Of a DNA stretch of 64,000 bases, positions 21,596 to 39,562 are shown one piece after another (positions within the stretch are counted from its first letter, which is position 1; the number at the start of each line of letters is the position of its first letter). The stretch is from Spirochaetia bacterium. Lineage in GTDB: Bacteria; Spirochaetota; Spirochaetia; DSM-2461. The notes under the pieces were generated by a model. The model searched no databases. It saw only the letters and a program-made list of their open reading frames with translations, and had not been told where the DNA came from. Where the stretch lies: assembly GCA_963668315.1 (NCBI GenBank), contig OY764216.1, forward strand, positions 4,352,001-4,416,000, in the 5' to 3' direction. The translations under genes were made by a program, and so were the position numbers.

Positions 21596-21628
21596 AAAAA
21601 ACCGCCGACGGAAGTCAGGCGGTTTTTT
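21596..21628. terminator. Bidirectional intrinsic terminator
   Basis: AAAAAACCGCC...GGCGGTTTTTT between convergent genes. Confidence 0.85.
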
Positions 21629-21691: not shown

Positions 21692-23683
21692 CTACAGGGC
21701 CAGGGCTTTCTCGGCCACATTCTCGGGGGTGAAGCCGAAGTGCTTGAAAATCTGTTTCACACTGCCGGAAACGCCGTATCCTTCCATTCCGATGACAGCT
21801 CCGTCGAGACCGACATACTTGTACCACATGTCGCCGATCTGGGCTTCCACAGCCACTCTTTTGGTGACAGCTTTGGGAAGAACACTTTCCTTATAGGCCG
21901 CGCTCTGGCCATCAAAGACTTCGGTACAGGGCATGGAAACGACCCGTACTTTCTTGCCCTTGGCGCTTAACAGCTCCGCCGCGTCAACGCAGACTTTCAC
22001 TTCCGAACCGGTTCCGATGAGAATAATGTCGGGAGTTCCCGCACAGTCGGAAAGGACATATCCGCCCTGGGCTACCTGAGCAACCTGTTCATCCGTCCGG
22101 GGGAGGGGGTCCAGATTCTGGCGGGACAGGGCCAGAGCGGAAGGCCCGCCTTCGTACTTGACCGCTTCCTTCCAGGCCACGGCCGTTTCAAGCCAGTCCG
22201 CCGGACGCCAGGTATGAACATTGGGCATGAGCCGCAGGGTGGGAATCTGCTCCACCGGCTGATGGGTGGGGCCGTCCTCCCCTACTCCGATGGAGTCATG
22301 GGTATAGATCAGGATGCTCCGCTGTTTCATGAGGGCGGCCATTCTGATGGCGTTCTGGGCGTAATCCTTGAAGATAAGGAACGTTGCATTATAGGCCAGG
22401 AAACCGCCGTGGAGAACCATACCGTTGGTAATGGCAGTCATGGCGAATTCCCGTACACCGTAATGGAGGTAGTTTCCGTCAGCATCGTCGGGAGTGATAT
22501 CCTTGGAACCGGACCAGATAGTCAGGTTGCTGGGAGCCAGGTCGGCAGAACCGCCCACCAGCTGGGGAATCAGCTTACCCACTTCGTTCAGGCTGTTCTG
22601 GGAGGCCTTGCGGGAGGCGATGGACGTGGCGCCGGTCATGAGTCCCTTGATGTATTTATCATATTCTGCTTCCCAGCCTTCGGGAAATTTTCCGGCCATT
22701 CTGTCGAGCAGTTCCTTTCCTTCGGCGGGATAGGCCTTAACGTAGTCATCCATCAGGGCGTCCCAGGCGTCGTTGGCTGCGGCCCCCTTGGCTCTGGCGT
22801 CCCAATCGGCATAAATATCCTCGGGCACGTAAAAAAGCTCATCGTACTCCCAGCCCAGTTCCTTGCGAACCAGGGCGCACTCGTCCGGTCCCAGGGGAGC
22901 GCCGTGGGATTCCTCTTTTCCCCCCTTGTTGGGAGAGCCGAAACCGATCGTAGTCTTACAGATAATGAGAGCGGGCTTGTCGCTTACGCTTTTTGCCTCA
23001 TCAATAGCCTTCTGAATAGCCGAATCGTCATGACCGTCGACAGGACCGACGATCTGCCATCCGTAAGCCTCGAATCTTTTGGCCGTATTATCGGTAAACC
23101 ATCCGTTGACTTCCCCGTCGATGGAGATGCCGTTGTCATCGTAAAAAGCAACCAGTTTGCCCAGCTTGTGGGTTCCCGCGAAAGAGGCGGCCTCGTGGCT
23201 GATACCTTCCATCATACAGCCGTCCCCCATGAAGGTGTAGGTGTAGTGGTCGATGGGAGCAATATCGGACTTGTTGTAACGGGCGGCCAGGATTTTTTCG
23301 GCCAGGGCCATTCCCACGGCATTGGTAAATCCCTGTCCCAGAGGACCGGTTGTCGTATCCACACCGGGGACTTCATCGTATTCGGGATGCCCGGGTGTTC
23401 TGGAATCGAGCTGACGGAAATTTTTCAGATCCTCGATGCTCAGATTGTAACCGGTCATGTGAAGAAGAGAGTAAATGAGCATGGATGCGTGGCCGTTAGA
23501 GAGGACGAACCTGTCCCGGTTGAACCATTTCGGATTAGCCGGATTGTGATTCATGTTTCTTCTCCAGAGGACTTCAGCCATATCGGCCATTCCCATGGGA
23601 GCTCCCGGGTGTCCCGAGTTGGCCTTCTGGACTCCGTCCATGGCCAGAATTCTAAGGGCGTTCGCCTGTTTCGTGCTTTTCAC
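21692..23683 (-). CDS. tkt: Transketolase
   Basis: [36 protein letters not shown]...[29 protein letters not shown]. Confidence 0.97.
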
Positions 23684-23838
23684 TTATTACTCCTTATAAA
23701 TTATCTTCAGAAAGGGATTTTCAATGTTACATATTATAATAAAAGGAGGAAGATGAAAACATACATATAATTGACTCACCGTGAGCTATAATCTGTATGT
23801 CCCCAGCGTCCCTCCTTCCGGAAAAGATCTATTCTGTC

Positions 23839-25110
23839 TTAAATATTTTTCGTATTGGCAAGAAAATATTCCTCCGCCTCGGCAGACCATAAACCGTTAT
23901 TCTTTTTTACGATTTTACCCAATTCCGCATAAAAGGGGTCGGATTTACCCATTTCTTCCAAATCGGCCAGAGCGAAGAGATCACAGCTTTTCTGAACATA
24001 CATCAGTTTCTTTCCTCCGGGTATTTTGGGAAGGTTCTTGGTGGTTTCCACAACCGCATCCAGTCCTCCCACGTGGGTGACCATGGCCGACGGATTCAGT
24101 TCTCCCTTCGCCATCATGGCCAGGGACTCTTTGAGGTCATCGGTGTTACCGCCGGAAGTTCCCACCAGATGATGGGCGGCATAATGGACATTGTAGAAGT
24201 TCATTTCCACGCTGAACGAATTGTCGCTGGGACCGGCGAAAAAGTTCAGGCAGCCGTCCTGGGCCAGGATCGCATCGCCCTGCCTGACAACGGGAGCCAC
24301 GGGTGCCATGACCATCACGTCATCGTATCCCCTGCCGCCGGAAAGCTCCATCAGGTTGGCAACCGCATCGCCTTCGCTCGTATTCAGGTAGATCAGCTTA
24401 ACGCCGTTCTTTTTGGCCTCCTCTACGGTATAGATGGAGGCGGCTCTGTCCAGACGGGCCTGATCGATATCGGTCACAACCAGAAGCCCGGGTTTTCTGT
24501 CGCAATGGAGGGCATAGTCGATCGCGCCCAGTCCCATGGGGCCCACGCCGGCCAGGATAGCCTGATTGCCCCCTTCGGTAATCCCCATGTTATGGATGTA
24601 GGTACCGGCGGGAATATGGTAATGGGCATGGTAGGTTCCCACGATGCAGGATACCGGCTCGGCCAGGGAGCCCATGAAGAAGGCTTCGGCGTCATAGGGA
24701 AGGAGACAACCCTGCTCCATTACTTCGGCGGGGATAACGATATGGGTAGACGCTCCTCCGATGGTGCGGTAGGAGTATCCCGGGGCAGAAAGCAGACCGA
24801 CCGGTCCTTTTTCGTAGTTGAGGGCGGGCTGAATGGCAAACTTATCCCCTTCCTTGAACTGGGAAGCCCACTTGGACCCGACCTTTAAGAGGCGTCCGCA
24901 GAATTCATGGCCGATAATGATGGGATTTTCCGCCACATCATCGGGGACACGCTTATGATCGGCTCCCTGGCTCTGGGCTTTATAGCTGGACATACAAACG
25001 CTGTCGGAAATGATCTCCGCCAGAATCTCGTCGTCCTTGATTTCGGGCAGTTCGAATTCATCAAGTCTCAGGTCGCCCTTTCCGTATAATCTTACCGCTT
25101 TCGTTTTCAT
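23839..25110 (-). CDS. L-sorbose-1-phosphate reductase-like zinc-dependent dehydrogenase (SorE-like)
   Basis: MKTKAVRLYGKGDLRL, DSVCMSSYK, GHEFCG, SLAEPVSC, GVGPMGLG, NFYNVHY, GTSGG, IPGGKKL closely resemble enterobacterial SorE. Confidence 0.8.
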   Translation of the reverse strand: MKTKAVRLYGKGDLRLDEFELPEIKDDEILAEIISDSVCMSSYKAQSQGADHKRVPDDVAENPIIIGHEFCGRLLKVGSKWASQFKEGDKFAIQPALNYEKGPVGLLSAPGYSYRTIGGASTHIVIPAEVMEQGCLLPYDAEAFFMGSLAEPVSCIVGTYHAHYHIPAGTYIHNMGITEGGNQAILAGVGPMGLGAIDYALHCDRKPGLLVVTDIDQARLDRAASIYTVEEAKKNGVKLIYLNTSEGDAVANLMELSGGRGYDDVMVMAPVAPVVRQGDAILAQDGCLNFFAGPSDNSFSVEMNFYNVHYAAHHLVGTSGGNTDDLKESLAMMAKGELNPSAMVTHVGGLDAVVETTKNLPKIPGGKKLMYVQKSCDLFALADLEEMGKSDPFYAELGKIVKKNNGLWSAEAEEYFLANTKNI

Positions 25111-25205
25111 GAAATAACTCCTTTAATTGACCACGAATTGGTGGTTCAACGTACTTTCTGATATCTCTTGCAGACCGTCTGTGCTCAGGGAGTTGGTATC
25201 TCTCC

Positions 25206-25278
25206 GAGCCAGCAGAGCCAGCAGAGTTTTTTCTCTCGCAAAGGCACAAAGGGGAAGATTCGGCGTCCTTGGGCCTTT
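25206..25278. repeat. Degenerate 8-9-bp tandem repeats with a partial inverted partner
   Basis: GAGCCAGCA x2 plus GAG; CGCAAAGG-CACAAAGG; downstream GCGTCCTTGGGCCTTT. Confidence 0.45.
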
Positions 25279-25319
25279 ATATTAAATCCCTAAATATACC
25301 ACTTTTCTATAAGGGGTAT

Positions 25320-25445
25320 CCGGATGGGGCAGATTTTGTTGAAGACAAGGCGGAGGAAGGTTTCCGGCCCGCAGTGTACGGTTGGTACATGAGGAGCCGG
25401 AGTTCTTCCGACTACGCTGCATTCGACAAAAGATGCCCCTTCCGG
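25320..25445. mobile_element. 126-bp palindromic MITE/REP-like element
   Basis: Terminal arms CCGGATGGGGCAGATTTTGTTGAA and TTCGACAAAAGATGCCCCTTCCGG (20/24 complementary), with nested CCGGC/GCCGG and TGTAC/GTACA stems. Abuts the SDR stop codon. Confidence 0.6.
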
Positions 25446-26573
25446 CTAATTCAGCATGACCTGGCCGCCCGTAATCGGCACAGCCTGTCCCGTCTCATAC
25501 TTCTGCTCCACCGTATAGAACAGAGCCTTCATGACATCCTCCGTTGTGCATCCCCTGTCCAGGGGCACTTTGGATTCGTAAAACCGGCGTACGTCGGCCA
25601 CAGTCTTCGCACCGGGCACTTTACCGGCGTTCAGGTACTGGACGAACAGGCCCCGGTCGGGATCTGACCAGAGGGGGCCGTCCAGGAAATTGCCAGGGCA
25701 GAGGGCGTTCACCTTGATTTTATCGGCTACCAGTTCCAGGGCGAAGCTCTGTGTCAGGCCGATGACTCCGAACTTGGCTCCCGCGTAGGCTCCGTTTTTA
25801 TTGGAACCCTCCAGACCGGACTTTGAACTGATGCAGATGATATCGGTCAGATATCCGTCGGCCTCACGGTTCTGCAGGGCCATCTGAAGAGCGGCAAACT
25901 TGGTGCAGATGAAAAACCCCGTATAATCCACGCTGGTGACGAAGGAGAAGTCCTTCAAGGTCATTTCCTTGACGCTTCCCGCTTTAAGCACTCCCGCATT
26001 ACTGACAAAAATATCCAGCCCGCCGGTGGTCAGGGCGACTTTGTCCATCATGGCCTGTACCGATTCCTCATCGGTCACATTGACAGATAAGGCGAAGGCG
26101 CAGGTCCGTCCCAGTTCTTCGTTCAGCTTCCGGGCCAGGTTATCAGCCCCTTCCAGGTTCATATCGGCGATATAGACGAAGGCTCCCGCCTCGGCCAGTC
26201 CCCTGACCATTCCTTCGCCGAAACCCTGGGCTCCCCCCGTCACCAGGGCCGTTTTGTTAAGGACCACGCTGTTTCTGTCCATGGGAGCCGCCGTCTCGGC
26301 GGGAGAGGAGATTCTCCCCTCCGCCAGGGAGGCCGCTTCATCGTAGGATTCGCCCAGGTAGAAGCAGCCGACCCCTTCCACAGAGACCATGCCGGTGCCG
26401 GGCTTCCAGGATTTTCTCAGGATTTCCTGAAAGTTATCCTCCCTGAGGCCGCTTATCCCTACGGCGGGAATGACATTCTGCTTGGTCTCGGCAAAAAGGA
26501 CGATTTTTCCCTTGTTTCCGTCAAAACTCAATCCCCTCAGTACGGGGGCTATTTTCGTAGCCAATGTATTCAT
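25446..26573 (-). CDS. Sorbitol-6-phosphate 2-dehydrogenase-like SDR (SrlD-like) with ~100-aa N-terminal extension
   Basis: TGGAQGFG, SSKSGLEGSNKNGAYAGAKFG, CPGNFLDGPLW, KVPLDRGC, TGQAVPITGGQVM. Confidence 0.82.
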   Translation of the reverse strand: MNTLATKIAPVLRGLSFDGNKGKIVLFAETKQNVIPAVGISGLREDNFQEILRKSWKPGTGMVSVEGVGCFYLGESYDEAASLAEGRISSPAETAAPMDRNSVVLNKTALVTGGAQGFGEGMVRGLAEAGAFVYIADMNLEGADNLARKLNEELGRTCAFALSVNVTDEESVQAMMDKVALTTGGLDIFVSNAGVLKAGSVKEMTLKDFSFVTSVDYTGFFICTKFAALQMALQNREADGYLTDIICISSKSGLEGSNKNGAYAGAKFGVIGLTQSFALELVADKIKVNALCPGNFLDGPLWSDPDRGLFVQYLNAGKVPGAKTVADVRRFYESKVPLDRGCTTEDVMKALFYTVEQKYETGQAVPITGGQVMLN

Positions 26574-27883
26574 TTAAGACTTATCTCCTCAGGAGCGGAA
26601 GGATTCATCGACCGTCCCGCCGATGCGTAGGCGGCAGACCTTTCAGCCAGGGTTTTTCCGGCCAGGGGATTCTTCGGGTTAAAGATTCCCAGATGGCCGT
26701 CCTTCATGCTCAGTTTTTCGTGGGCGATCAGAGCCCAGGTTGCATCGATCAGATGCTTGAAATCATCCTGCAGGATCTCGGGGCAGTTGAAGCTCTGCCG
26801 GGAGGAGTTGATGTCCACCCCGCTGATCTCCATGAATCCGTGTTTCCCGCAAAGGGCCATGACGCGTTTGAGCTGTTCCAGGGTATTGCGGGGAGGCATA
26901 TAGGTAATCGCCTGAAATCCCGCATCCTTCAATACATCCATCAGCTCATCCAGAAAGGAGTCCTCGAAGGTCTGCGCTTTCTTATCCCCCGTGGGACTCT
27001 CCCCCACATCGCCGAGATAGGCATAGGAGGGAATGGCCCCGACAGAGCGGGCGAAGGCGGTGACCTCTTTGACGGGAGGGCACTCTTTCCCATCGGGCTG
27101 AACAAAGAAGCGCTCGACGAAATTGCCCTTCATTACGCCTAAAAGGTCGTAAAGGTAATGGGGATTGGACTCATCAAGCAGTCTCTCCCTCAGGGAACCC
27201 TTAAGCTCAAGTCCCATCTTCTCTTCCATCAGCTTGACAACGGGTGCCCCCTTGCCGGATATTTCCACCAACTTGGCCGCCAGGGCGTAACAGATGTGCC
27301 TTTCGGTAATCGTTCCCCCTTCCTCGTAACGGGAAATGGCGACCACTTCCCTGTCAAAATCCAGTCCGGGGAGGTCGTATCCGGCCAGCAATTCGTTCAG
27401 CTTAGACACTTCCGCTCTGTTTCTTTCGAAACGGGCGGCCCGGTAGGGTTTCAGAAAGGCTTCGCACTCGGCCGTTTTGTTGACCGGTATGCCGTGCAGG
27501 GTCATATAAGCCAGGTTATCCGAATCGGGATTATTGAGACGCCTGCCTTCCATGGGCGTTCCGGTAAAATTCACCCGCATCTCGAAACCGCAGGTGGTGG
27601 CCAGGCCGATCGCCTTTCCGGCTTCGACCATCTCTTCCAGTCCCCCCACGCTGTCGTGATCCATGATGCCCACGGCCAGCAGACCCGCTTCCCAGGCTTT
27701 ATAGGCCGCCAGAGAAGGCGAATAGGGACTGAAGGAGTAGATGGTATGGACGTGGTTGTTTACTTCGGGAGTTTCCCTGCGGGTAACTTCGCCGGCTCGT
27801 ATCAGCTCGCCCATTTTCCGGGCCGCCGCCAGCCGCCCTTCCTTTTCGGGGCCGTTCATTTCTTCGATTAATCTATCAATCAT
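26570..27883 (-). CDS. PHP-domain phosphoesterase-like protein
   Basis: NNHVHTIYS (HxH), IMDHD, CGFE and TERH motifs. Overlaps the SDR start by 4 bp. Confidence 0.82.
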   Translation of the reverse strand: MIDRLIEEMNGPEKEGRLAAARKMGELIRAGEVTRRETPEVNNHVHTIYSFSPYSPSLAAYKAWEAGLLAVGIMDHDSVGGLEEMVEAGKAIGLATTCGFEMRVNFTGTPMEGRRLNNPDSDNLAYMTLHGIPVNKTAECEAFLKPYRAARFERNRAEVSKLNELLAGYDLPGLDFDREVVAISRYEEGGTITERHICYALAAKLVEISGKGAPVVKLMEEKMGLELKGSLRERLLDESNPHYLYDLLGVMKGNFVERFFVQPDGKECPPVKEVTAFARSVGAIPSYAYLGDVGESPTGDKKAQTFEDSFLDELMDVLKDAGFQAITYMPPRNTLEQLKRVMALCGKHGFMEISGVDINSSRQSFNCPEILQDDFKHLIDATWALIAHEKLSMKDGHLGIFNPKNPLAGKTLAERSAAYASAGRSMNPSAPEEISLK

Positions 27884-27907
27884 TACCGCTCCGTTTATTG
27901 GTTATGA

Positions 27908-28041
27908 CCGAACCGCGAAAAACGCGAAAGGCGCGAAAGGGGCGGTTCGGGGTATGAAGCTGATTCAGGCTTTCGCTTGTATCGGCTTCATTCGAATAGT
28001 CGGTTGAGGCGCCTGACGCGAAACACGCGAAAGGCACGAAA
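27908..28041. repeat. Cluster of 9-bp-period CGCGAAA repeats and hairpins
   Basis: CGCGAAA at 27914, 27923 and 27932, enclosed by CCGAACCGC/GCGGTTCGG. Hairpin ATGAAGCTGAT/ATCGGCTTCAT (27954-27991). Second triplet at 28017, 28026 and 28035. Confidence 0.75.
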
Positions 28042-28102
28042 CTACGGTTCCTTTTAATTATCAGCGCTGATGCGGGATAAAATCAACCTCAATCTTCTCT
28101 TT

Positions 28103-28210
28103 ACAATTCTTCATTCTTAATTCTTCATTAAAACATGTGAGAAAAGCCAAAAGCGAAAGCCTCGTAAGCCTAACTCGCTCACGTCCGCTTTCCGCTGTCG
28201 GCTTTCACAT
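28103..28210. repeat. Four degenerate heptamers followed by a 76-bp imperfect palindrome
   Basis: ACAATTC TTCATTC TTAATTC TTCATTA (28103-28130); ATGTGAGAAAAGCC...GGCTTTCACAT (28135-28210), immediately after the E1 stop. Confidence 0.6.
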
Positions 28211-28212
28211 CC

Positions 28213-30669
28213 TTACACGCCCAGCCTGTACTGGCGGAGGATTTCCCCATTGGTCTGCACGGTGGAGACCTCGTGTCCCGGCAGGGGCAGGATCTGCTCA
28301 TGCACCGCGTCGATCATCCACTCGGGGCGGGGGAAGTAGATATGCTCCAGCTCTGCGGGGGGGCTGATCCAGTTCCGGCTTCCCACGACAACGGGAGGTC
28401 CGTCCAGGTAATCGAAGGCCAGCTTGGTGATGATGGACGCGATATTATGCAGGTAGGACCCCCGTTCACAGGCGTCGGAAGTCAGCATAACCCGTCCGGT
28501 CTTCTTCACCGACTCGATGATGGGCTCGAAGTTGAGGGGGTTGATGAAACGCAGGTCGATGACTTCGGCGCTGACGCCGTACTTCTCTTCCATCTGCGCT
28601 GCGGCCTTCATGGCGGGATACAAAGTGGGTCCGACGGTCAGGATGGTCAGATCCTTTCCTTCCTTTCTGACAACCGGTTCGCCTTCGGGCACCTCGTAAT
28701 ACTCTTCGGGGACGCCCTCTTTCACGAACTCCTCGCCCACGCCGTACAGTTTCTGGCTCTCCAGGAAGATCACCGGATCGGTTCCCCTCAGAGCCAGGGC
28801 GAGCATGCCCTTCGCGTCGTAGGGAGTGCTGGGGTAGTACACTTTCAGGCCGGGGATATGGGCCACGAGGGCCGACCAGTCCTGGGAGTGCTGGGCGCCG
28901 TATTTGTTACCCACCGACACGCGGAGGACAACGGGCATCTTGAGTATTCCGGCGCTCATGCTCTGCCACTTGGGCAGCTGGTTGAAGATCTCGTCTCCCG
29001 CCCGTCCCATGAAGTCGCAGTACATCAGTTCCACCATGGCCCGTCCTCCGGACATGGCGTAACCCAGGGCGGAAGCCACGATGGACGCCTCGGATATGGG
29101 GCTGTTGAACAGTCTGTGATAGGGAAGAGCCTCGGTCAGGCCGCGGTAACAGGCAAAGGCGCCGCCCCAGTCCCGGTTCTCCTCGCCGTAGGCCACCAGG
29201 GTCGGGTCTTTGTAGAACCGGTCCAGGGCGGCTTCGAAAATACCGTCGCGGAAGGTATACAGGCGGGTGGCGGAAATGGCCTGGCCCTTCTCATCGAAGG
29301 CGTAGCGCTGCTTTCTGGCCAGCTGCTGAACCCGGGGATTCTCCTCTTTGGTCATCAGCACGTCCGGCTTGGCTTCGTCAAAGGCTTCCACCTTTTCGTT
29401 GGAGTACATGACCGATTCGATGAACTTGCCGTCCACCATGGGGCTGATTTCATCGTTGATGGCCAGACTCATGGTGGTCTCGATTTTCTTGATAACCTTC
29501 ACCTTCAGGCTTTCGGCATCCTTGTCGCTCATTACGCCGCCTTTGACAAGGTACTCCCTGAAGGCGTCGATGGGATCGGCCTGTTTAAAGGCGTCCTGCT
29601 CTTCCCGGCTCCGGTAGCTGGAAGCATCCGAGGGAGAGTGCCCGGAGAGGCGGTAGGTAATGGTATCCATGATAACCGGACCGTCGCCCGCTTCCAGAAT
29701 TTTTCGTTTCCTCTCCATGGCGTCCGCCACGGCCAGGGGATTGAAACCGTCCACCCGCTCGGCATGCATGGCCATCTCATTGACGCCGGCACCAATTCTC
29801 GCGGGATATTTGTACCCCATGGTCTCACCCCAGGTCTGGCCGCCCATGCCGTAAAAATTATTGAACACGTTGAGCATATAGGGGGGAGCGCCGGCCATGT
29901 CGCCCCAGAGAGTCTTGTACTGGTCCATGGCGGCCAGCATCAGACCTTCCCATACGGGACCGCATGCCGTGGCCGCGTCGCCTATGTTGGCGATGACGAT
30001 ACCGGGCTTCCGGTTGATTTTCTTGTAAAGGGCGCCGCCCACGGCGATGGCGCCGGAACCGCCGACGATGGCGTTATTGGGCATGGAGCCGAAGGGGATG
30101 AAAAAGGTGTGCATCGAACCGCCGAGTCCCCGGTTGAAGCCCCACTTGCGGGCGAAGATCTCCGCCAGAGCGCCGTAAAGGATGAAGTTCTCCGCATGAT
30201 CCCGGACATTCTCTCCCTTGAAGTGCTTGTCTACGACCTTGAGAGTATCCCCTCCCAAAAAGCTTTCCATCGTCGTGGTCAATCCGCTCTCGTCCATCTT
30301 GGATACGGCGGAAAGGCACTTGGCCAGAATCTCTCCGTGGGACCGGTGGGAACCGAAAATAAAGTCCTCCGCCCCCAGGGTCATGGCCTGGCCCACGGCG
30401 GCCGATTCCTGACCGGCGGACAGATGGGCGGGGCCTTTATGATTATATTCCACACCGTGATAACTGTTATTCTTCTTAATGTCGTCCAGCATGGTTTCGA
30501 ACTCGCGGATCATCAGCATATCGTAATAGGCCTTTTTCAGCCTGTCCTTGCCGTACTTCTTGATCTCCTTCTTGATATCTCCCTTGTACTGGTTTACGGG
30601 GATATCCTTAATGCTGAGCATTTCCGGTTCTCTGATCTTTTTCGGGTCTATGTTTAGGACCTGTGGCAT
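28213..30669 (-). CDS. ThDP-dependent 2-oxoacid/acetoin-dehydrogenase-like E1 with fused alpha and beta subunits; substrate unknown
   Basis: Alpha part: [27 protein letters not shown]...[13 protein letters not shown]. Beta part: [40 protein letters not shown]. Confidence 0.9.
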
Positions 30670-30708
30670 ATTTTTCTCCTTCCTTTCTATTTGTCTACCG
30701 TTACGGCT

Positions 30709-30737
30709 ATTATCTCTTTTCTAAAATGTAGAATCAA
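30709..30737 (-). promoter_or_regulatory. Candidate internal promoter for E1 and downstream genes
   Basis: Minus strand TTGATT-17 bp-GATAAT, directly downstream of the heptamer array. Confidence 0.45.
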
Positions 30738-30745
30738 AAATTGCA

Positions 30746-30899
30746 TCAATTCTCAATTCTCAATTCTCAATTCTCAATTCTCAATTCTCAATTCTCAATT
30801 CTCAATTCTCAATTCTCAATTCTCAATTCTCAATTCTCAATTCTTCATTCTTCATTCTTCATTCTTCATTCCGCTTTCGCCCTTCAGCTTCCGTCTTTC
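30746..30899. repeat. Compound heptamer array: (TCAATTC)x14, (TTCATTC)x4, then four degenerate AGCTTTC-like units
   Basis: Read directly: 30746-30843, 30844-30871, then CGCTTTC GCCCTTC AGCTTCC GTCTTTC up to the lpdA stop. Confidence 0.96.
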
Positions 30900-32243
30900 T
30901 CACTTCACCTGCCAGAGGGCATCCTTGACGATCTCCGACATGCTGGGATGGGGGAAAATCACTTCCTTCACATCCTGTATCCTCAGCTCATCCTCAATCA
31001 TAACCGAGGCGGAGTGAATGATCTCCGAACAGGTCCCGCCCAGCATATGCACGCCCAGGATACGGTCCGTTTCTGCCTCGGCGATCACCTTGCACATGCC
31101 CCGCTCCTTGCCGTACTCCGCCAGGAAACGGCCGTTGGCGATAAACTGCATGGTACCCGTCTTCACCTTGATGCCCTGAGCCTCGGCGTCCTTCTCGGTC
31201 AGCCCGCACCCGGCGGCTTCCGGATTGGAGTATATCGCCCAGGGGATCGCCTCGTAACGCATGATCTGGCTGCCGCCGAACATATTCGCCACGGCCACCT
31301 CGGCCATGCGGGAAGCCGAATGGGCCAGGAGGGATTTTCCCGTCACATCGCCGATCGCCCAGACACCGGGGAGGTTTGTGGCCATTCTCTCGTCCACCGC
31401 GACGCCCCGGGGAGACACATCCAGCCCCAGCCCGTCCAGACCGTCCACATTGGGCCGTCTTCCCACGGACATGAGCACCAGATCGGCGTCCAGGTAGTCG
31501 GTTTTACCCGTTTTATCGGTATATTTTACCCGTTTTCCCTCGACCCCGTCGACTTTGCAGCTCAGAAGGAATTTCACCGGCTTCAGCTGCTGCCTGAGCA
31601 TTTTGGAGAACTCCCGGTCCATCAGGGGGGCCACTTCGTCCATCATCTCCACCACGGTCACATCCGATCCGATCTGGGAAAAGAAATTGGCAAACTCCAG
31701 GCCGATCACGCCGCCGCCGATGATCACCAGCTTTCCGGGGATCTCCTTAATCTGGAGAATCTCCCGGCTGGTCACCACGATCTCGCTGTCATGGCCGGGA
31801 ATGGGGGGCACAAAGGGCCTCGATCCGGTGGCGATGATGATATTCTTCCCCTCGTAGCTGCCCTTTCCCTCTCCGTCGAGGACCTCCACGCTTGAGCGGC
31901 CGGTCATCCTGGCCTCGCCGAAAATCACATCCGCCTTGCCCGACTTCATCAGAAAGGCGATGCCCTTCCGCAGCTGGTCGATCACCTCGGCCTTCCGCTC
32001 CATGGCCTTTTCCAGGCTGAATTTCACATCCCCGCAGGTCACACCGAAGTCCTCCCCGTGCAGGGCGTGGCTGTAGTGTTTGGCCGACGCCAGAAGGCAT
32101 TTGGTGGGGATGCATCCGTGGTTCGTACAGACCCCGCCCAGATGATCCTTCTCGATTATCAGGACTTTTTTACCCATATGGCCGGCCCTTTCGGCAGCCA
32201 CGTAACCGCCGGGACCGGAACCGATCACAATCAAATCATACAT
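30900..32243 (-). CDS. lpdA: Dihydrolipoyl dehydrogenase (E3)
   Basis: IGSGPGGY, GGVCTNHGCIPTK redox disulfide, GGGVIGLE, AIGDV, HPSMSE. Confidence 0.96.
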   Translation of the reverse strand: MYDLIVIGSGPGGYVAAERAGHMGKKVLIIEKDHLGGVCTNHGCIPTKCLLASAKHYSHALHGEDFGVTCGDVKFSLEKAMERKAEVIDQLRKGIAFLMKSGKADVIFGEARMTGRSSVEVLDGEGKGSYEGKNIIIATGSRPFVPPIPGHDSEIVVTSREILQIKEIPGKLVIIGGGVIGLEFANFFSQIGSDVTVVEMMDEVAPLMDREFSKMLRQQLKPVKFLLSCKVDGVEGKRVKYTDKTGKTDYLDADLVLMSVGRRPNVDGLDGLGLDVSPRGVAVDERMATNLPGVWAIGDVTGKSLLAHSASRMAEVAVANMFGGSQIMRYEAIPWAIYSNPEAAGCGLTEKDAEAQGIKVKTGTMQFIANGRFLAEYGKERGMCKVIAEAETDRILGVHMLGGTCSEIIHSASVMIEDELRIQDVKEVIFPHPSMSEIVKDALWQVK

Positions 32244-32261
32244 CAATTCTTCTCCTATTCT

Positions 32262-32335
32262 GGGGGGCCGCCCTCCGGGCGCCGGGCTTTCCGCTCGAAC
32301 AGGCTGGCGCCTGTAACCGCTGCAATCCCTGCCCC
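32262..32335 (-). ncRNA. Structured intergenic element resembling the Flavo-1 RNA motif
   Basis: Minus strand GGGGCAGGGATTGCAGCGG-TTACAGGCGCCAGCCTGTTCG-AGCGGAAAGCCCGG-CGCCCGGAGGGCGGCCCC. The GGGATTGxAGCGG...AGCGGAAAGCCCG pattern matches my recollection of Flavo-1; needs cmsearch. Confidence 0.5.
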
Positions 32336-32340
32336 ATACG

Positions 32341-33699
32341 TCAGCCCGCCAGGGCCAGGTCTATGTTCTCTATGGTGGTAACCACATCCTTCAGGAACTT
32401 CGCCGCCGGAGCCCCGTCCAGGGCCCGGTGGTCAAAGGTCAGGGAAAGTCCTATGCGGGACTGCAGCCTGATCTCCCCGTTTACTTCCGCCGGCTGTTTC
32501 GTTATGGCGCAGACGCCCAGGATACCCGCTTCGGGGGTGTTCAGCACGGGAGTGAAGCTTTCGATGCCCATGGCTCCCAGGTTGGTTACCGTAAAGGTTC
32601 CGCCCGAAAGATCCTCCGGACCGGCCTTCCCCTCCTGACAGGCGCCGGCGAGCCGTTTCGTCTCGCCCGAAATGCCCTTGAGGCTCAGAAGATCGGCGAA
32701 TTTCACAACCGGAACCATCAGGCCCTTGGGGGTATCCACGGCCAGGCCCAGGTGGACATGGTCGAACTGGACCATCTTGTCGCCCAGGAAGTGCTGGTTG
32801 ATCTCGGGGTATTTTGTCAGCGCCCGGCTGACGGCGAAAAGGACCAGATCGTTGATGGTCACCCTTGTCAGGCCCATCTCTTCGGGGCTGTTCTTAAACC
32901 GCTTGCGCAGGGCCATAAGGGCCGTGGCATCGGCGGAGGTATTCAGTGTCAGCTGAGCCGAGGAGCTCAGGGAGTCGTGCATTCTCTGGGATATCACCTT
33001 GCGGATGCCTTTGACGGGAAGTTCGGTAGCAGATCCGGGGAATTCCAGTCCCGTTTCGGCGGGGGTGGCCACGGGAGCGGCGCCTCCCAGATCGGAAACC
33101 CGAACGCGGCCTCCCATTCCCGTGCCCGATGCCGGTGCGGTCATTCCCGAATCCTTCGCGGCCTGTACGGCGGCGGGGGTCAGAGGCTGCTTGCCCGCCA
33201 GGGCGGCTTCCACATCCCGTTCGATAACCCGTCCCCCCGGACCGGAACCGGCCAGCTGAGCGGCATCGAAGCCCTTGCCGGCGGCCAGATTTCTCGCACG
33301 GGGCGATACGGCGCCCTGTCCCGCAGCAGAAGTCACGGCCACTGTGGGAGCGGCGGCCGGGACAGGAGCGGCTGCAGGGGCAGCCTTCTCTGCCGGAGCC
33401 GGTTCGGAAGATACCGTTTCTGCCGCCGGGGCTCCGCCTTCGTAGGAACTGACGTCCTCCCCCGCTTCGCCGAGAAGAGCGATGAGAGTATGGACAGGCA
33501 CTTCGTCATCGATATTAAAAAAGGTTTTCAGAAGAACGCCGTCGGCGGGTGATTCCACGTCCACCACGGCCTTATCCGTCTCCACCTGGCAGAGTATGTC
33601 ACCGGTGGAAACGGTATCTCCCACTTCCTTATTCCATTCAACGATAATACAGGATTCCACTGAATTACCCTGCTTTGGCAGTAATACTTCTTTTGCCAT
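32341..33699 (-). CDS. Dihydrolipoamide acyltransferase (E2)
   Basis: One lipoyl domain (VETDKA), Ala/Pro linker, two peripheral-subunit-binding-like repeats (GSGPGGRV, GTGMGGRV), GGTFTVTNLG and DHRALDG. Confidence 0.95.
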   Translation of the reverse strand: MAKEVLLPKQGNSVESCIIVEWNKEVGDTVSTGDILCQVETDKAVVDVESPADGVLLKTFFNIDDEVPVHTLIALLGEAGEDVSSYEGGAPAAETVSSEPAPAEKAAPAAAPVPAAAPTVAVTSAAGQGAVSPRARNLAAGKGFDAAQLAGSGPGGRVIERDVEAALAGKQPLTPAAVQAAKDSGMTAPASGTGMGGRVRVSDLGGAAPVATPAETGLEFPGSATELPVKGIRKVISQRMHDSLSSSAQLTLNTSADATALMALRKRFKNSPEEMGLTRVTINDLVLFAVSRALTKYPEINQHFLGDKMVQFDHVHLGLAVDTPKGLMVPVVKFADLLSLKGISGETKRLAGACQEGKAGPEDLSGGTFTVTNLGAMGIESFTPVLNTPEAGILGVCAITKQPAEVNGEIRLQSRIGLSLTFDHRALDGAPAAKFLKDVVTTIENIDLALAG

Positions 33700-33721
33700 T
33701 CCTGATTTTTCTCCTTTTTTC

Positions 33722-34477
33722 CTAAACCATTTCTATTTTTATGCCCGATTCGCTTAACCGGTTTTTATCTTCTTCTTTTATATGACCGTCAGTAATGAGC
33801 CGGCTCACCCGTTCCAGGGGAAATATCTTGGCGAAGCCCGCTTTGCCGATCTTCGATGAATCGGCCAGAACCACCGTTTCCCGGGAGTGATCGGCCATCA
33901 CACGGATAATTTCCGCGTTCTCCACCAGATGGGACGTAAAACCCGCTTCGGCGGAGATGCCGTCAGTGCCGATAAAGGCGTATTTCACGTGGTACTGTTC
34001 CAGTTCTTTCAGGGCGGTGGGCCCGACGAGCGCTTCGGCCTGGGGACGGAATTCGCCGCCCACAAGGGTCAGATTCAGCGCCGGGTTCATACGGGCGTAG
34101 GGAAGGATCAATGTGGAATTGGTCACGATGCGCACATCCCGCTTCCCCAGGAGATAGGAACCGATAAGGGCCGTCGTCGTACCGGCCACGATCATGACCG
34201 TATCTCCGTCTTCGATCATATCGGCCGCTTTACGGGCTATCTCCTTCTTGGCGTCCATATTTTCTTTCTGCCGGGAGAGCATATCCGGGTGGAAGGCGGT
34301 CTGAACCCCTCCCCTGGTTCGGAAAACCAGGCCCATGGAAGCCAGATGGTCCAGATCATTCCTCACGGTGACCCGGGATACATCAACGAGCTCGCTCAAC
34401 TGGGAAACAGACAGGGACGGATCGTCTCTCAAAAAATCCAGAATATCCTTCTCCCTCTCATTTAAACCACTGAACAT
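33722..34477 (-). CDS. DeoR/GlpR-family transcriptional regulator
   Basis: VSRVTVRNDL HTH, RTRGG, KKEIARKAADMIEDGDT, AGTTT, VTNS, LADSSK. Confidence 0.95.
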   Translation of the reverse strand: MFSGLNEREKDILDFLRDDPSLSVSQLSELVDVSRVTVRNDLDHLASMGLVFRTRGGVQTAFHPDMLSRQKENMDAKKEIARKAADMIEDGDTVMIVAGTTTALIGSYLLGKRDVRIVTNSTLILPYARMNPALNLTLVGGEFRPQAEALVGPTALKELEQYHVKYAFIGTDGISAEAGFTSHLVENAEIIRVMADHSRETVVLADSSKIGKAGFAKIFPLERVSRLITDGHIKEEDKNRLSESGIKIEMV

Positions 34478-34508: not shown

Positions 34509-34552
34509 TTTCTTTTTTATTTCATATTACTTTCCTTTTGCTTTTCTATCAA
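34509..34552 (-). promoter_or_regulatory. Promoter of the DeoR operon overlapped by four phased GAAA boxes (candidate operator)
   Basis: Minus strand TTGATA-17 bp-TAATAT. Plus-strand TTTC at 34509, 34520, 34531 and 34543. Confidence 0.55.
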
Positions 34553-34665
34553 GGTTTTTTGAAAAGTTTTTGATAATTTCCCCTATCCGGTGGGAGGCTG
34601 AGAGCTTTTTTGTTATATTGATTGTACCGGGATGTCCCGGACTGACCATGCGAGGGAGGGATATT

Positions 34666-35187
34666 ATGGAAAAACAGCCGTACCAGCTTTTTCTTGATCT
34701 GGACGGCGTTCTGGTTGATTTCAACAAGGGCGTCCGTTTTTATACGGGGAAAAGTCCGGAGGACCAGACCCCCAAGCAGATGTGGTCCGTCCTCTCCCAT
34801 GTCAAGAATTACTATGCCAAGCTGGACTGGACCGAAGACGGCCGTGAGCTTTGGGATCGGACAAAAGATCTGAATCCGGTCATTCTCACCGGTCTGCCCC
34901 TGGGAAAATGGGCGGAGCCGCAGAAAAGGGAGTGGTGCCGACGGGAGCTGGGGAAAGACGTGCCGGTTATATGCGGCATGTCCCGGGAAAAGCATCTGCT
35001 GGCCTGGGACTGGCTCCACGAAAACGGCCTGGGCGATGTCGTTCCCGTTCTGATTGACGACAGACTGAACCTGAAATTCCCCTGGGAGGAGTCGGGGGGA
35101 AAATTCATTCTCCACTTCAACTCAAGGGAGTCGCTGAGTCAGCTTGATGAGATACTGGATTCGTCGGCAGTCTCCGCCGGGATCTAA
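34666..35187 (+). CDS. HAD-superfamily hydrolase, 5'(3')-deoxyribonucleotidase-like
   Basis: FLDLDGVLVDF (motif I), ILTG, K and LIDDR. ATG 34666 follows GGGAGG. Confidence 0.82.
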   Translation: MEKQPYQLFLDLDGVLVDFNKGVRFYTGKSPEDQTPKQMWSVLSHVKNYYAKLDWTEDGRELWDRTKDLNPVILTGLPLGKWAEPQKREWCRRELGKDVPVICGMSREKHLLAWDWLHENGLGDVVPVLIDDRLNLKFPWEESGGKFILHFNSRESLSQLDEILDSSAVSAGI

Positions 35188-36644: not shown

Positions 36645-37247
36645 TTACACAGACCCCATCCGGCCGTCCCATCGTTTGGTACGATCCGATTCCCGGCCCA
36701 GAAGATCAAGGACACGGGAAACGGTATGCCTCACCATATCCTCCAGGCTCTCCGGTTTGTGATAAAAGGCGGGGACGGGGGGCATGATACAACCGCCCGC
36801 TTCGGTAACGGACAGCATATTTTTCAAGTGAAGGACGTTCAGGGGAGTTTCCCTTGCCAGAAGGATGAGGGGGCGTCTCTCTTTCAGTGTCACATCGGCC
36901 GCCCTTTCCAGCAGATTGGAAGAGATGCCCCCGGCTATCCGGGCAAGGGTCCCCATGCTGCAGGGGGCGACCACCATACCGGCCGTCAGATAGGAACCGC
37001 TGGCCATGGGACTGTGCAGGTCCCGTAATCCGCAGGTTGTCAGAAGCCCCTTTCCGCCGTCGATATCCCGGCTCCACTCCTCCCATCTCTTCCCCGTCTC
37101 GAAGGCCAGAACATTTCGCCCCTGCTCGGTCAGGACCGCTTCCACGGGGATTCCCTGTTCTACCAGAGCCCGGGCCGTTTCTATTCCGTAAACCGAACCG
37201 GTCGCACCGGTAATGCCCAGAAGGACCGGTCTCTCAGAGGGAGCCAT
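36645..37247 (-). CDS. ubiX: Flavin prenyltransferase, UbiX family
   Basis: GITGATG, ASGS, PCSMGTLA, RAADVTLKERR, RETP, PPVPAFY. Confidence 0.94.
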   Translation of the reverse strand: MAPSERPVLLGITGATGSVYGIETARALVEQGIPVEAVLTEQGRNVLAFETGKRWEEWSRDIDGGKGLLTTCGLRDLHSPMASGSYLTAGMVVAPCSMGTLARIAGGISSNLLERAADVTLKERRPLILLARETPLNVLHLKNMLSVTEAGGCIMPPVPAFYHKPESLEDMVRHTVSRVLDLLGRESDRTKRWDGRMGSV

Positions 37248-38121
37248 ACATTCCTCCGGGAAGATAAATATCCAGAAGTGCGAAAAAAAGGAACAGGGGG
37301 GAAAGGATCTGATTCAGATGGTACGATGCCAGGGGGATCCACTTTATACTCCCCTTCCAGGCAAGAAGGTGTTCGGCCGCCAGAAGGAATCCGGCCAGAA
37401 TCAGCCCGGTCAGATACCATCCACGAAGGGGAAAGAAGAGGAAATTCATGGCCCAGAAAGAAAGCGTTCCCAGGTGGGACAGCCCCGCAATGACGAGGGC
37501 TCCCTTTTTTCCGAAGGCGGCGGGAACCGAATGGATGCCATGGGTTCTGTCATGCTCGATGTCCTGAAGGGCATAGATAATATCGAACCCGGCCACCCAG
37601 AGGGCGGCGCCGATGGTCAGGGGAAAATAACGGATTTCAAATCGTCCGCTCAGAGCCAGAAAGCTCCCCATGACGGCGGCCGACGTGGTCACCCCCAGCC
37701 AATAGTGGCATAAAAAGGTGAAACGCTTGGTAAAGGAGTAACCGAAGATCAGCACCAGAGCGGCGGGGACCAGGAGCAGACAGAGGGGATTCAGTTTCCA
37801 GGCAGCGAAGAGAAACAGGGCCAGACAGAAAAAGGAAAAGACCGACAGCTCCATCGGCTTGAGCCGTCCCGAAGGCAGGTCCCTTCCGGCGGTCCGCGGG
37901 TTTTCCCTGTCTATATGCCGGTCTATAATGCGGTTGAGGGCGTTTGCTCCGTTTCTGGCTCCGAATACGGCGACCAGTATCCAGAGGACTTTCATCAGAT
38001 CGGGTCTGCCTTTGCTTTCAAATAGAAAGGCGGCAACCGCCAGAGGCAGGGAAAAGAGTGTATGCTGTATCATCACCGCCGAGCCAATGAGAGAAGTTTT
38101 ATCCAGAATTTTCTTAATCAA
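37234..38121 (-). CDS. UbiA-like polyprenyltransferase (MqnP-type)
   Basis: IQHTLFSLP, NRIIDRHIDRENPRTAGR, YSFTKRF, WVAGFDIIYALQD. Confidence 0.88.
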   Translation of the reverse strand: MIKKILDKTSLIGSAVMIQHTLFSLPLAVAAFLFESKGRPDLMKVLWILVAVFGARNGANALNRIIDRHIDRENPRTAGRDLPSGRLKPMELSVFSFFCLALFLFAAWKLNPLCLLLVPAALVLIFGYSFTKRFTFLCHYWLGVTTSAAVMGSFLALSGRFEIRYFPLTIGAALWVAGFDIIYALQDIEHDRTHGIHSVPAAFGKKGALVIAGLSHLGTLSFWAMNFLFFPLRGWYLTGLILAGFLLAAEHLLAWKGSIKWIPLASYHLNQILSPLFLFFALLDIYLPGGMYGSL

Positions 38122-39562
38122 GGCCCAGCTCCCCCCAGATACGATCGATTTTCGCCTTGACCTCTCCGGTCATTTCGATATCCTCGGGCCACTCCCGGTG
38201 GTGGTTGTCCATGGGACCTTTCTTGGTGGCGTCGATTCCCATTCTCGTTCCGAAACGGGGCAGAGGCGAGGCGTGATCCAGCGCATCAAGAGGCCCCTGG
38301 GACAAAATCAAATCCCGGGAAGCGTCAATATTATTGAAGACTTTCCACATCACTTTGCCCACGTCCTGAACATCCACTTCCTTATCCACAACAATGATCA
38401 TTTTTGTATACATCATCTGCCCCAGACCCCAGAGAGAACTGAGTACCTTGTGTACATGACCGGGAAAGCGCTTTTCCATGGAAATGATGGCGCAGTTATG
38501 GAAGACCCCTTCCAGGGGCAGGTTAAGATCGACAATCTCGGGAACCATTTTCTTCAAAAGGGGAAGAAAAAGCCTTTCCGTCGCCTTGGCCATATAACAG
38601 TCCTCCATGGGAGGCTGCCCGACAATGGTGGCGAGAAAAACGGGATTTTTCCTGCGGGTGATACAGGTCACGTGAAAAACGGGGTAATCGTCCGCAAGAG
38701 AGTAATACCCCGTATGGTCCCCGAAAGGTCCTTCCCTGCGCAAAGGCTCGGAGGGATCGACATAACCTTCCAGAACAAATTCCGCCTGGGCGGGAACATG
38801 GAGATCACAGGTCACACACTTGACGGTTTCCACGGGCTTGCCCCGCAGATATCCGGCGAAAAAAAGCTCCGAGACACCTTCGGGAAGAGGAGCCGTAGCC
38901 GCATAGGTAACGGCCGGATCATCGCCCAGAGCCACAGCCACGGGCATCTTCTCGCCCCGGGCCTTATACTTCTGATAGAAGTGGGCTCCATCCTTGTGGA
39001 GGTGCCAGTGCATGCCGGTGGTCTTTTCATCAAAGACCTGCATCCGGTACATCCCCATGTTCTGTGCTCCCGTATCGGGGTCGCGGGTTATTACCAGAGG
39101 AAGGGTAAAGAAAGGTCCCCCGTCCCCGGGCCAGCAGGTCAGCACGGGCAGTTTGGATAGGTCCGGCTCTCTCTCCACCACTTCCTGGCAGGGAGCTTTG
39201 AGGACCTTGCTGGGCAGGAAAAGGCGCGCCCATTTCGCCTTGGAGAGGAAGCTGGGAATATCCAGCTTGACCGTCTGTGAAAAGGCCCAGTCGATCAGTT
39301 CCTCCAGCTCACGGGCCTTGGCATCAAGGGATTCGCTCCCCAATGCCAGAGCCATACGCTCGTAGCTCCCGAATCCATTGATAAAAACGGGAAAATCCGA
39401 TCCCTTCACATTCTCGAAGAGCAGAGCCGGACCGATTGCCTTACTTACCCGATCGGTAATTTCCGTAATCTCCAGACACGGATCCACTTCCCGGGAGATT
39501 CTCTTCAGCTCCCCCCGGGATTCCAGATTTTTTATGAAGGAACGCAGATTCTTATAAGCCAT
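38114..39562 (-). CDS. UbiD-family prFMN-dependent decarboxylase (menaquinone-biosynthesis MqnL type)
   Basis: CWPGDGGPFFTLP, NMGMYRMQ, GMHWHLHKDG, EGPFGDHTGYY, GQPPMED, LWGLGQM, GPLDALDH. Confidence 0.9.
   Translation of the reverse strand: MAYKNLRSFIKNLESRGELKRISREVDPCLEITEITDRVSKAIGPALLFENVKGSDFPVFINGFGSYERMALALGSESLDAKARELEELIDWAFSQTVKLDIPSFLSKAKWARLFLPSKVLKAPCQEVVEREPDLSKLPVLTCWPGDGGPFFTLPLVITRDPDTGAQNMGMYRMQVFDEKTTGMHWHLHKDGAHFYQKYKARGEKMPVAVALGDDPAVTYAATAPLPEGVSELFFAGYLRGKPVETVKCVTCDLHVPAQAEFVLEGYVDPSEPLRREGPFGDHTGYYSLADDYPVFHVTCITRRKNPVFLATIVGQPPMEDCYMAKATERLFLPLLKKMVPEIVDLNLPLEGVFHNCAIISMEKRFPGHVHKVLSSLWGLGQMMYTKMIIVVDKEVDVQDVGKVMWKVFNNIDASRDLILSQGPLDALDHASPLPRFGTRMGIDATKKGPMDNHHREWPEDIEMTGEVKAKIDRIWGELGLD

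Follow-up and report, generated by a model that had tools for sequence, protein, structure and literature searches.

Among the major sugars of algal fucoidan, mucin and pectin are fucose and rhamnose; in the textbook anaerobic routes half of the carbon is lost as 1,2-propanediol, or toxic lactaldehyde has to be handled. The classical pathway (FucI/RhaA, FucK/RhaB, FucA/RhaD or RhaEW, FucO) enters through isomerase, mutarotase and kinase and cuts the chain between C3 and C4 into two three-carbon units. Acetoin dehydrogenase (AcoA/AcoB/AcoC/AcoL), a heterotetrameric-type thiamine diphosphate (ThDP) E1 with an HR motif, combined with a lipoyl E2 and an E3, cleaves a methyl ketol to acetyl-CoA and an aldehyde. 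In L-sorbose catabolism SorE reduces L-sorbose-1-P to glucitol-6-P and SorD/SrlD oxidizes glucitol-6-P to fructose-6-P, by which the chain is turned end for end. The locus described here is a block of eight genes on the minus strand of a 64,000-nucleotide stretch of DNA (the window; contig OY764216.1, positions 4,352,001 to 4,416,000) from a Spirochaetia bacterium, the host, labelled G000; other G and L numbers denote comparison genomes and loci. Seven of these genes, encoding a DeoR-family regulator, E2, E3, a fused E1, a PHP-fold protein, an SrlD-like and a SorE-like dehydrogenase, are a conserved module found in several groups of anaerobes. The module is real, built from known folds and apparently undescribed; no paper describing it or the intermediates proposed below was found in the open-access literature, a coverage that leaves out subscription journals. 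Its substrate is very probably a deoxy-sugar, linked to L-fucose or L-rhamnose. We give an even chance to the more specific proposal that the module makes up the lower half of a so far undescribed route for L-fucose and L-rhamnose, with acetyl-CoA, erythrose-4-P and NADH formed by way of a PHP epimerase, SorE- and SrlD-like steps and cleavage by E1-E2-E3.

A preliminary description of the block had listed eight co-directional genes in the order given below, with neither transporter nor sugar kinase among them. The open reading frames (ORFs) and their Pfam and NCBIfam assignments, checked for all eight genes, bear this out on both counts; E3 and transketolase (tkt) score above curated cut-offs. 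The features are, in gene order:

34524..34552, minus strand: sigma70-like promoter match (TTGATA-17-TAATAT) 5' of deoR, a consensus match only
33722..34477, minus strand: DeoR-family regulator, 251 amino acids (PF08220 and PF00455)
32341..33699, minus strand: E2 dihydrolipoamide acyltransferase, 452 amino acids, with lipoyl, E3-binding and catalytic domains (Pfam)
30900..32246, minus strand: E3 dihydrolipoamide dehydrogenase, 448 amino acids (TIGR01350, 499.5 bits against a cut-off of 408.8)
30746..30871, no strand: heptamer tandem arrays in the E3-E1 spacer (TCAATTC x14.1, ATTCTTC x4.6), outside the pathway
28213..30669, minus strand: fused E1 alpha-beta ThDP enzyme, 818 amino acids, in a clade of its own, with an AcoA-type HR motif
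26570..27883, minus strand: PHP-fold protein, 437 amino acids, YciV/Cv1693-like (weak Pfam match and structure model)
25446..26573, minus strand: SrlD/SorD-like short-chain dehydrogenase/reductase (SDR), 375 amino acids, with about 100 extra N-terminal residues
23839..25110, minus strand: SorE/YggP-like zinc-binding medium-chain dehydrogenase/reductase (MDR), 423 amino acids
23733..23738, minus strand: TATAAT hexamer in the 155-bp spacer (66% AT) 5' of tkt, a possible promoter of its own
21692..23683, minus strand: transketolase tkt, 663 amino acids (TIGR00232, above cut-off)
21605..21618, minus strand: terminator-like stem-loop 3' of tkt, a consensus match only

From deoR to tkt the spacers measure 22, 94, 230, 329, -4, 335 and 155 bp, the PHP and SDR genes overlapping by 4 bp, and the promoter scan listed no full match in the spacer 5' of tkt. 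The E2 score lies under every NCBIfam E2 cut-off; its domains, E3 and an LplA homologue, the lipoylation enzyme encoded at 4.02 Mb of the host genome, together provide the parts of a lipoyl-dependent dehydrogenase complex. The best NCBIfam family of the SDR is sorbitol-6-P dehydrogenase, the cut-off of which is not reached (231 bits against 307), and its best PDB match is the SrlD structure 5o3z. For the MDR, identity is 49.6% to Klebsiella SorE over 100% of the length and 50% to E. coli YggP.

Conservation was assessed in the best 80 of at least 592 confirmed E1 relatives from a scan of species genomes; many of these loci are short, the genome sets partly overlap, and related genomes are not independent. 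The loci come chiefly from Spirochaetota and Kiritimatiellae/Verrucomicrobiota, with one each from Lentisphaerales, Vecturithrix, Sumerlaeia and Trueperaceae, and the nearest relatives of the window E1, among the matches listed, are from Spirochaetales. Partners in the 80 loci are E2 (64), E3 (61), PHP (52), DeoR (47), SDR (46), SorE-like MDR (42) and tkt (8). The linkage of E1 to PHP, SrlD-like and SorE-like genes, for which a neighbourhood survey had been suggested, is conserved: all three are present at 34 of the 51 E1 loci in which the sequence continues for 5.5 kb or more downstream of E1. A survey started from PHP gives a similar picture, in that, among 80 metagenome PHP loci, the 36 that span 10 kb or more contain SDR in 27, E1 and E2 in 23 each and the SorE-like gene in 20. 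Within 201 spirochaete genomes the E1 matches split into nine at 58-100% identity (close E1) and ten at 35-38%, and the PHP family occurs in eight genomes, every one among the nine with close E1; in a second phylum (around G201) PHP occurs in 9 of 151 genomes, all nine with E1. Since E2, E3, PHP, DeoR, SDR and SorE-like genes recur across the 80 E1 loci, the arrangement is not due to chance.

The suspicion already voiced that tkt might be just a neighbour proved correct. Its presence at 8/80 E1 loci and at 0/80 metagenome PHP loci rules it out as a core member, and it is a lineage-specific, recruited neighbour. The eight copies are 49-50% identical, apart from one short match at 67%. In 19 relatives' loci the slot 3' of the SorE-like gene is taken by a rhamnulokinase-like gene (7), tkt (3), FucI (1) or RhaA (1); tkt occupies it in two genomes of the same genus (88%), with a different protein (47%) in one more. 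The window tkt is the host's sole full-length transketolase.

Two variants of the module were also seen. At L006, L007, L026, L060, L063, L068, L071 and L078 there is no adjacent E3, and at L018, L024, L025, L031, L033, L035, L040 and L041 (Kiritimatiellae/Verrucomicrobiota) a second short E2-like match of about 85 amino acids, probably a free lipoyl-domain gene, lies between E2 and E3.

The sugar link emerges from the genes that join the module. Recurring extra neighbours are FGGY kinases, RhaA, FucI, FucU, RhaM, sugar ATP-binding cassette (ABC) transporters, transaldolase (TAL) and LplA; the 80 loci contain rhamnulokinase-like kinases (20+6), RhaA (8), FucI (7), FucU (5), RhaM (5) and TAL (4), and 33 of them have at least one deoxy-sugar gene. 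One of the FGGY kinase families scores 462 bits to rhamnulokinase, for which the cut-off is 528. No other sugar isomerase family recurs in more than three of the module neighbourhoods, and no dehydratase, lactonase or aminotransferase recurs there as a part of the module. FucI or RhaA is encoded in all nine spirochaete genomes with close E1 (FucI 8, RhaA 6); the figure is 35 for the 192 other spirochaete genomes and 25 for the 182 that lack both E1 groups. Of the eight close-E1 genomes with fucI (one of these eight fucI genes sits at a contig edge), none has a class II aldolase within 11 kb of that gene, versus 18/23 FucI-positive genomes with neither E1. In the host itself RhaA, FucI, FucU, RhaM, an ABC transporter, a kinase, LplA and TAL are encoded at scattered genome sites.

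Every reaction of the proposed pathway is deduced from genes and sequence. FucI and a kinase would provide L-fuculose-1-P, the isomerases, mutarotases, ABC transporter and kinase being encoded elsewhere in the host genome. The PHP protein would epimerize this compound at C3 to 6-deoxy-L-sorbose-1-P, the SorE-like enzyme would reduce the latter to 1-deoxy-glucitol-6-P, and the SrlD-like enzyme would oxidize that to 1-deoxy-D-fructose-6-P, placing the methyl group beside the new ketone. E1 would then cleave this methyl ketol to erythrose-4-P and hydroxyethyl-ThDP, the same intermediate as in pyruvate dehydrogenase (PDH) and AcoAB; the lipoyl-E2 would take the hydroxyethyl unit to acetyl-CoA, and E3 would yield NADH. 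The net reaction would be L-fucose + ATP + CoA + NAD+ -> acetyl-CoA + erythrose-4-P + ADP + NADH. Transketolase and transaldolase could recycle three erythrose-4-P to fructose-6-P and two glyceraldehyde-3-P, which would account for the recruitment of tkt and tal on more than one occasion. As L-fuculose is the C3 epimer of 6-deoxy-L-sorbose, exactly one epimerase would be missing and no phosphatase would be needed; the PHP protein is assigned to this step because it is the one core gene without another.

Such a pathway resembles the classical one in its isomerase, mutarotase and kinase entry, but the predicted cut falls between C4 and C5 (C2 + C4), lactaldehyde would not be obligatory, and the module genomes have no aldolase beside fucI. 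With the L-sorbose system the module shares an MDR of about 50% identity, an SrlD-like SDR and the expected end-for-end conversion of a ketose-1-P to a ketose-6-P. Unlike that system it has no phosphotransferase system (PTS), its MDR and SDR are below curated cut-offs or unclassified, it is linked to rhamnulokinase, RhaA and FucI, and its product would be a 1-deoxy ketose barred from glycolysis.

Rhamnulose-1-P, the C4 epimer, would enter via the proteins of class II aldolase fold encoded next to rhaA, which retain the FucA-type Glu and three His residues. In the host a RhaEW-like aldolase half lies immediately 3' of rhaA (3616485-3617603), and a FucA-like tandem class II aldolase (495656-496966), which has lost the metal histidines of its second domain, reaches no fuculose-aldolase cut-off. 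The two also occur together in G018 and G202. By way of dihydroxyacetone phosphate (DHAP) and lactaldehyde they might convert the C4 epimers into one another, and propanediol could then also arise as an overflow product. The rhaA-adjacent protein was considered as an AraD-type 4-epimerase, an assignment weakened by the presence of the aldolase-type Glu. A natural 656-residue fusion of an aldolase-fold protein with an SrlD-like SDR, RhaEW-like in architecture, is encoded at L052 (14997-16964). The N-terminal extension of the SDRs, considered as a possible remnant of the second domain of the rhaA-adjacent protein, matches that domain significantly in 2/7 SDRs, the window SDR not among them.

The structure model of the PHP protein (predicted local distance difference test score 95) shows a PHP barrel with an insertion domain and superimposes on the YciV/Cv1693-type structures 3o0f (Z 26.5, root-mean-square deviation 2.7, 273 residues aligned) and on 9etk (Z 24.5). 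A nine-ligand consensus around a trinuclear metal centre is set out in the accessible text on the PHP family (PMC3666897), and the available part of the RNase AM study lists the metal ligands and reports that D20A, E72A and D255/H257A abolish activity (PMC9410882). Ligand positions were mapped by sequence through four canonical host paralogues to RNase AM and the solved sequences. Five of the nine are kept (H44, H46, H76, E101 and D357) and four, in RNase AM numbering, are replaced: D20 by F51, H83 by Y126, H198 by Y289 and H257 by N359. Y126, Y289 and N359 are found in 38/38 aligned orthologues and position 51 is Phe or Tyr (one Tyr) in the same 38; all four replacements recur in 80/80 further PHP matches. 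One metal site therefore survives and the other two are degraded. Compared with YciV/RNase AM/Cv1693 (TrpH), the fold, the distal phosphate arginines (R151 and R154) and the alpha-metal ligands are retained, whereas Tyr stands in place of each beta-site His and the gamma site has lost two of its three ligands (Asp to Phe, His to Asn). The phosphoesterase of the preliminary description thus stands as to fold; as to activity, the protein is probably not a phosphoesterase, because four of nine metal ligands are invariantly replaced. The surviving site and the invariance of the replacements argue for a novel, conserved role that involves a phosphorylated ligand. That this is C3 epimerization of a sugar phosphate is a prediction to which we give somewhat less than even credence.

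E1 scores under all PDH cut-offs (TIGR03182, 171.8 vs 393.85; TIGR03181, 112.6 vs 411.35; NF006667, 226.1 vs 321). The GDA..NN ThDP motif and the catalytic-His GHS and QHS motifs are retained, as in the aco-operon proteins L126 and L128. Residues 108-109 are HR (SHRSHGE), as in AcoA-type proteins, where human PDH (TAYRAHG) and Paracoccus PDH (TSYRDHGH) have YR; from the rows compared, HR appears to be diagnostic of the acetoin-dehydrogenase type. In a quick tree of 49 rows, with separate alpha and beta subunits concatenated, the E1 family and a Rhizobiales clade form one group (branch 3.36, 100% by the Shimodaira-Hasegawa-like approximate likelihood ratio test), which has the distant E1s of spirochaetes as its sister and falls among AcoAB-like rows, the YR-type rows lying outside. 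The best PDB match of the beta part is a 2-oxoacid dehydrogenase; for grouping with branched-chain 2-oxoacid dehydrogenase or Firmicute-type E1 the tree offers those YR-type rows, which are unannotated. The earlier placement of E1 among ketol-cleaving ThDP enzymes is upheld by tree and motif, and the phylogeny proposed to set it against PDH, branched-chain and AcoAB enzymes separates it from annotated AcoAB, in a tree with concatenated rows and flagged long branches. Also borne out is the view that E1 is not the housekeeping pyruvate enzyme, for the host has a separate aceE-aceF-lpd PDH, above cut-off, elsewhere in its genome. Acetoin-type cleavage of a C2-C3 bond by E1 is somewhat more probable than not.

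The resemblance to acetoin dehydrogenase thus extends to the HR-type E1, the lipoyl E2, the E3 and the predicted splitting of a methyl ketol into acetyl-CoA and an aldehyde. In contrast to Aco, the module E1 has fused alpha and beta parts with insertions and is 30-35% identical to annotated AcoAB and PDH; the regulator is DeoR rather than sigma54 AcoR, AcoX is replaced in the context by sugar genes, the module travels with sugar-phosphate enzymes, and the predicted leaving group is erythrose-4-P rather than acetaldehyde. The proposed reaction would also resemble an oxidative reversal of DXP synthase (DXS; DXP is 1-deoxy-D-xylulose-5-P) on the six-carbon homologue. Like DXS and transketolase, E1 would apply ThDP chemistry to a D-threo ketose phosphate, and a Y-x-x-F-x-x-R segment aligns with DXS; unlike DXS it is PDH-type and lipoyl/CoA-coupled. 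The glyceraldehyde-3-P pocket of DXS is described, in the accessible part of the source, as Y392, R420 and R478 in E. coli numbering (PMC11019550).

Related E1 systems were noted in other settings. The Rhizobiales sister E1s (51-52% identity; L123 14001-19649 on pRL8, L124 and L125) lie beside a free lipoyl domain, an AcoC-type alpha/beta hydrolase and sugar-related kinases and regulators. Another family of fused E1s, at about 35% identity (L094, L096 and L098-L102, from G007, G021, G044, G053, G062, G084 and G091), is encoded next to a mannitol-1-P-dehydrogenase-like gene, frequently behind DeoR, and neither E2 nor E3 is nearby; all ten of its genomes have FucI, none has an aldolase as close as 11 kb to fucI, and it may be a parallel sugar-cleaving system. 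Further sugar-linked lipoyl complexes are AcoAB-like E1-E2-E3 sets divergent from a glucitol-type PTS on a Priestia plasmid (L127, 309-7946) and behind a sugar-binding regulator in a C. difficile record (L134, 1520-7440).

Cultured strains carry the module, which is therefore directly testable. According to the consulted portion of their description, including Table S2, L-fucose and L-rhamnose are used by both Pontiella sulfatireligans F21 and P. desulfatans F1, whereas L-sorbose, sorbitol and galactitol are used by neither; the same portion states that growth on sorbitol was predicted yet not seen and that fucK was not identified (PMC7356697). The F21 genome holds the module (L025). F1 has the PHP orthologue PDESU_01495. 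From fucose F1 forms H2, acetate and ethanol by fermentation, with succinate and lactate as minor products, and 1,2-propanediol is not reported in the available part of that study (PMC6388578), a phenotype that fits the deoxy-sugar cleavage model. P. agarivorans uses neither fucose nor rhamnose, according to the accessible text of its description (PMC10880615).

Several observations weigh against the proposed pathway. The chief one is the homoserine role cited for the R. leguminosarum sister E1, taken up below. The full PHP-SDR-SorE set is missing from 17 of the 51 E1 loci with room for it. In the second phylum all nine genomes have FucI or RhaA, but against a high background of 107/151, which makes the association weak (Fisher p 0.06), and the aldolase-proximity counts are not independent because 15 of the 18 genomes with an aldolase near fucI belong to one genus and some module genomes are fragmented. 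The quick E1 tree has flagged long-branch joins; and in a weak profile alignment E1 Y550 pairs with DXS Y392 but R420 and R478 are unmatched. Metal ligands are also lost in non-catalytic PHP domains, as the accessible text of PMC3666897 records; a purely structural role of the kind seen in E. coli Pol III is conceivable for the PHP protein. G200 and G111 carry an aldolase beside rhaA; the host has FucO above cut-off and, with AraD counted, four genes of class II aldolase fold, two of them rhamnose-linked with intact aldolase-type Glu/His sites, and probably still makes propanediol. F21, a module carrier, also makes 1,2-propanediol from fucose, by the available part of PMC6388578, which shows that the lactaldehyde route can run beside the module; in F21 a class II aldolase adjoins a putative methylthioribose-1-P isomerase gene. 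These aldolase and propanediol data speak for a lactaldehyde-salvage branch beside FucO with the same E1 chemistry and another feed. Either aldolases would split fuculose- and rhamnulose-1-P, free L-lactaldehyde and DHAP being re-condensed (for example by a fructose-1,6-bisphosphate-type aldolase) to 6-deoxy-L-sorbose-1-P, or fuculose-1-P would pass through fucitol-1-P to 1-deoxy-D-tagatose-6-P, with PHP acting later or not catalytically. The active-site residues kept by the rhaA-adjacent proteins, the co-occurring tandem FucA-like protein and the aldolase-SDR fusion at L052 favour it as well. It is nevertheless unlikely, as G150, a 99% complete genome with FucI, FucU, kinase and module, gave zero class II aldolase matches at 1e-8 and zero FucO matches, G081 and G029 likewise gave zero FucO matches, and fucose loci such as L001 and L023 contain no aldolase.

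We also regard as improbable that E1 is a specialized 2-oxoacid dehydrogenase that cleaves no ketol and works downstream of deoxy-sugar catabolism, its substrate being, for instance, 2-oxo-4-hydroxybutyrate or a 2-oxoacid derived from a sugar. Its relatives carry automatic names of 2-oxoisovalerate or alpha-ketoacid dehydrogenase, the phosphate-pocket arginines of DXS are unmatched, and among the close relatives found a phenotype is reported for just one, which comes from the R. leguminosarum pRL80079-88 cluster. The pRL8 E1, 51.5% identical and likewise fused, is pRL80083 by gene order (pRL80079, pRL80081 and pRL80085 were matched to annotations) and lies near a homoserine dehydrogenase. Cluster and gene are cited for homoserine catabolism, the gene as needed for it, in a table of a review seen in part (PMC8416774) and in the available portion of a preprint (10.1101/2021.02.09.430557), a role that fits 2-oxoacid chemistry. 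Yet that cluster has an AcoC-type split E2, its annotated neighbours include no PHP, SorE or SrlD, and it also holds sugar ABC, RbsD/FucU, kinase and isomerase genes. In the module itself the partners of E1 are ketose-P/alditol-P oxidoreductases and a kinase, with no recurring dehydratase, lactonase or aminotransferase, and the motif is HR, not YR. A block for L-sorbose, sorbitol or other ordinary ketoses, with E1 releasing glycolyl-CoA, was the substrate range and product first envisaged, SorE and SrlD being the nearest characterized relatives. It is now very improbable: the glucitol PTS (PF03608) and the sorbose/mannose-type PTS (PF03609) are each found in 0/5 module genomes, with positive controls, F21 uses none of sorbose, sorbitol and galactitol in the portion of its description cited above, the neighbours are fuc and rha genes, and a methyl-ended ketose would give acetyl-CoA in place of glycolyl-CoA. 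Least credible of all is an ordinary acetoin dehydrogenase or second PDH beside sugar genes by chance; the AcoA-type motif and the position among AcoAB-like proteins agree with it, but E1 has low identity to annotated AcoAB and PDH and a long branch of its own, it occurs across genomes in almost the same pattern as PHP, and the host already has AceEF.

If the proposed fucose/rhamnose pathway holds, passage of the methyl end directly to acetyl-CoA would alter which products are predicted for anaerobes of sediment, digester and gut, and might explain the propanediol-free fucose fermentation of P. desulfatans. Lipoyl complexes would extend to sugar phosphates, the PHP fold would gain a non-hydrolytic role, and thousands of proteins now named 2-oxoisovalerate dehydrogenase or phosphoesterase would be re-annotated; 7997 of 7997 E1 candidates scored at E <= 1e-100 (the distant family included), the corresponding count for PHP being 7318 of 8000. 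In its fullest form the proposal comprises two new activities, a PHP-fold, single-metal, tyrosine-based ketose-1-P 3-epimerase and a lipoyl-dependent 1-deoxy-D-fructose-6-P dehydrogenase, by which anaerobes of several phyla would ferment fucose and rhamnose without lactaldehyde or propanediol. This combination is possible but rather doubtful.

Outside the module, a divergent 205-residue ORF (34570-35187, plus strand) gave zero Pfam or NCBIfam matches. The window ORFs at 36645-39562 resemble, by motifs, UbiX, UbiA and UbiD of what is presumably a menaquinone-type pathway, unrelated to the module. A second heptamer tandem array occupies 28106-28129 in the E1-PHP spacer. Heptamer-type tandem repeats are associated with the PF05635 four-helix-bundle family, and a PF05635 gene is located in or next to the same operon at loci L023, L033 and L035.

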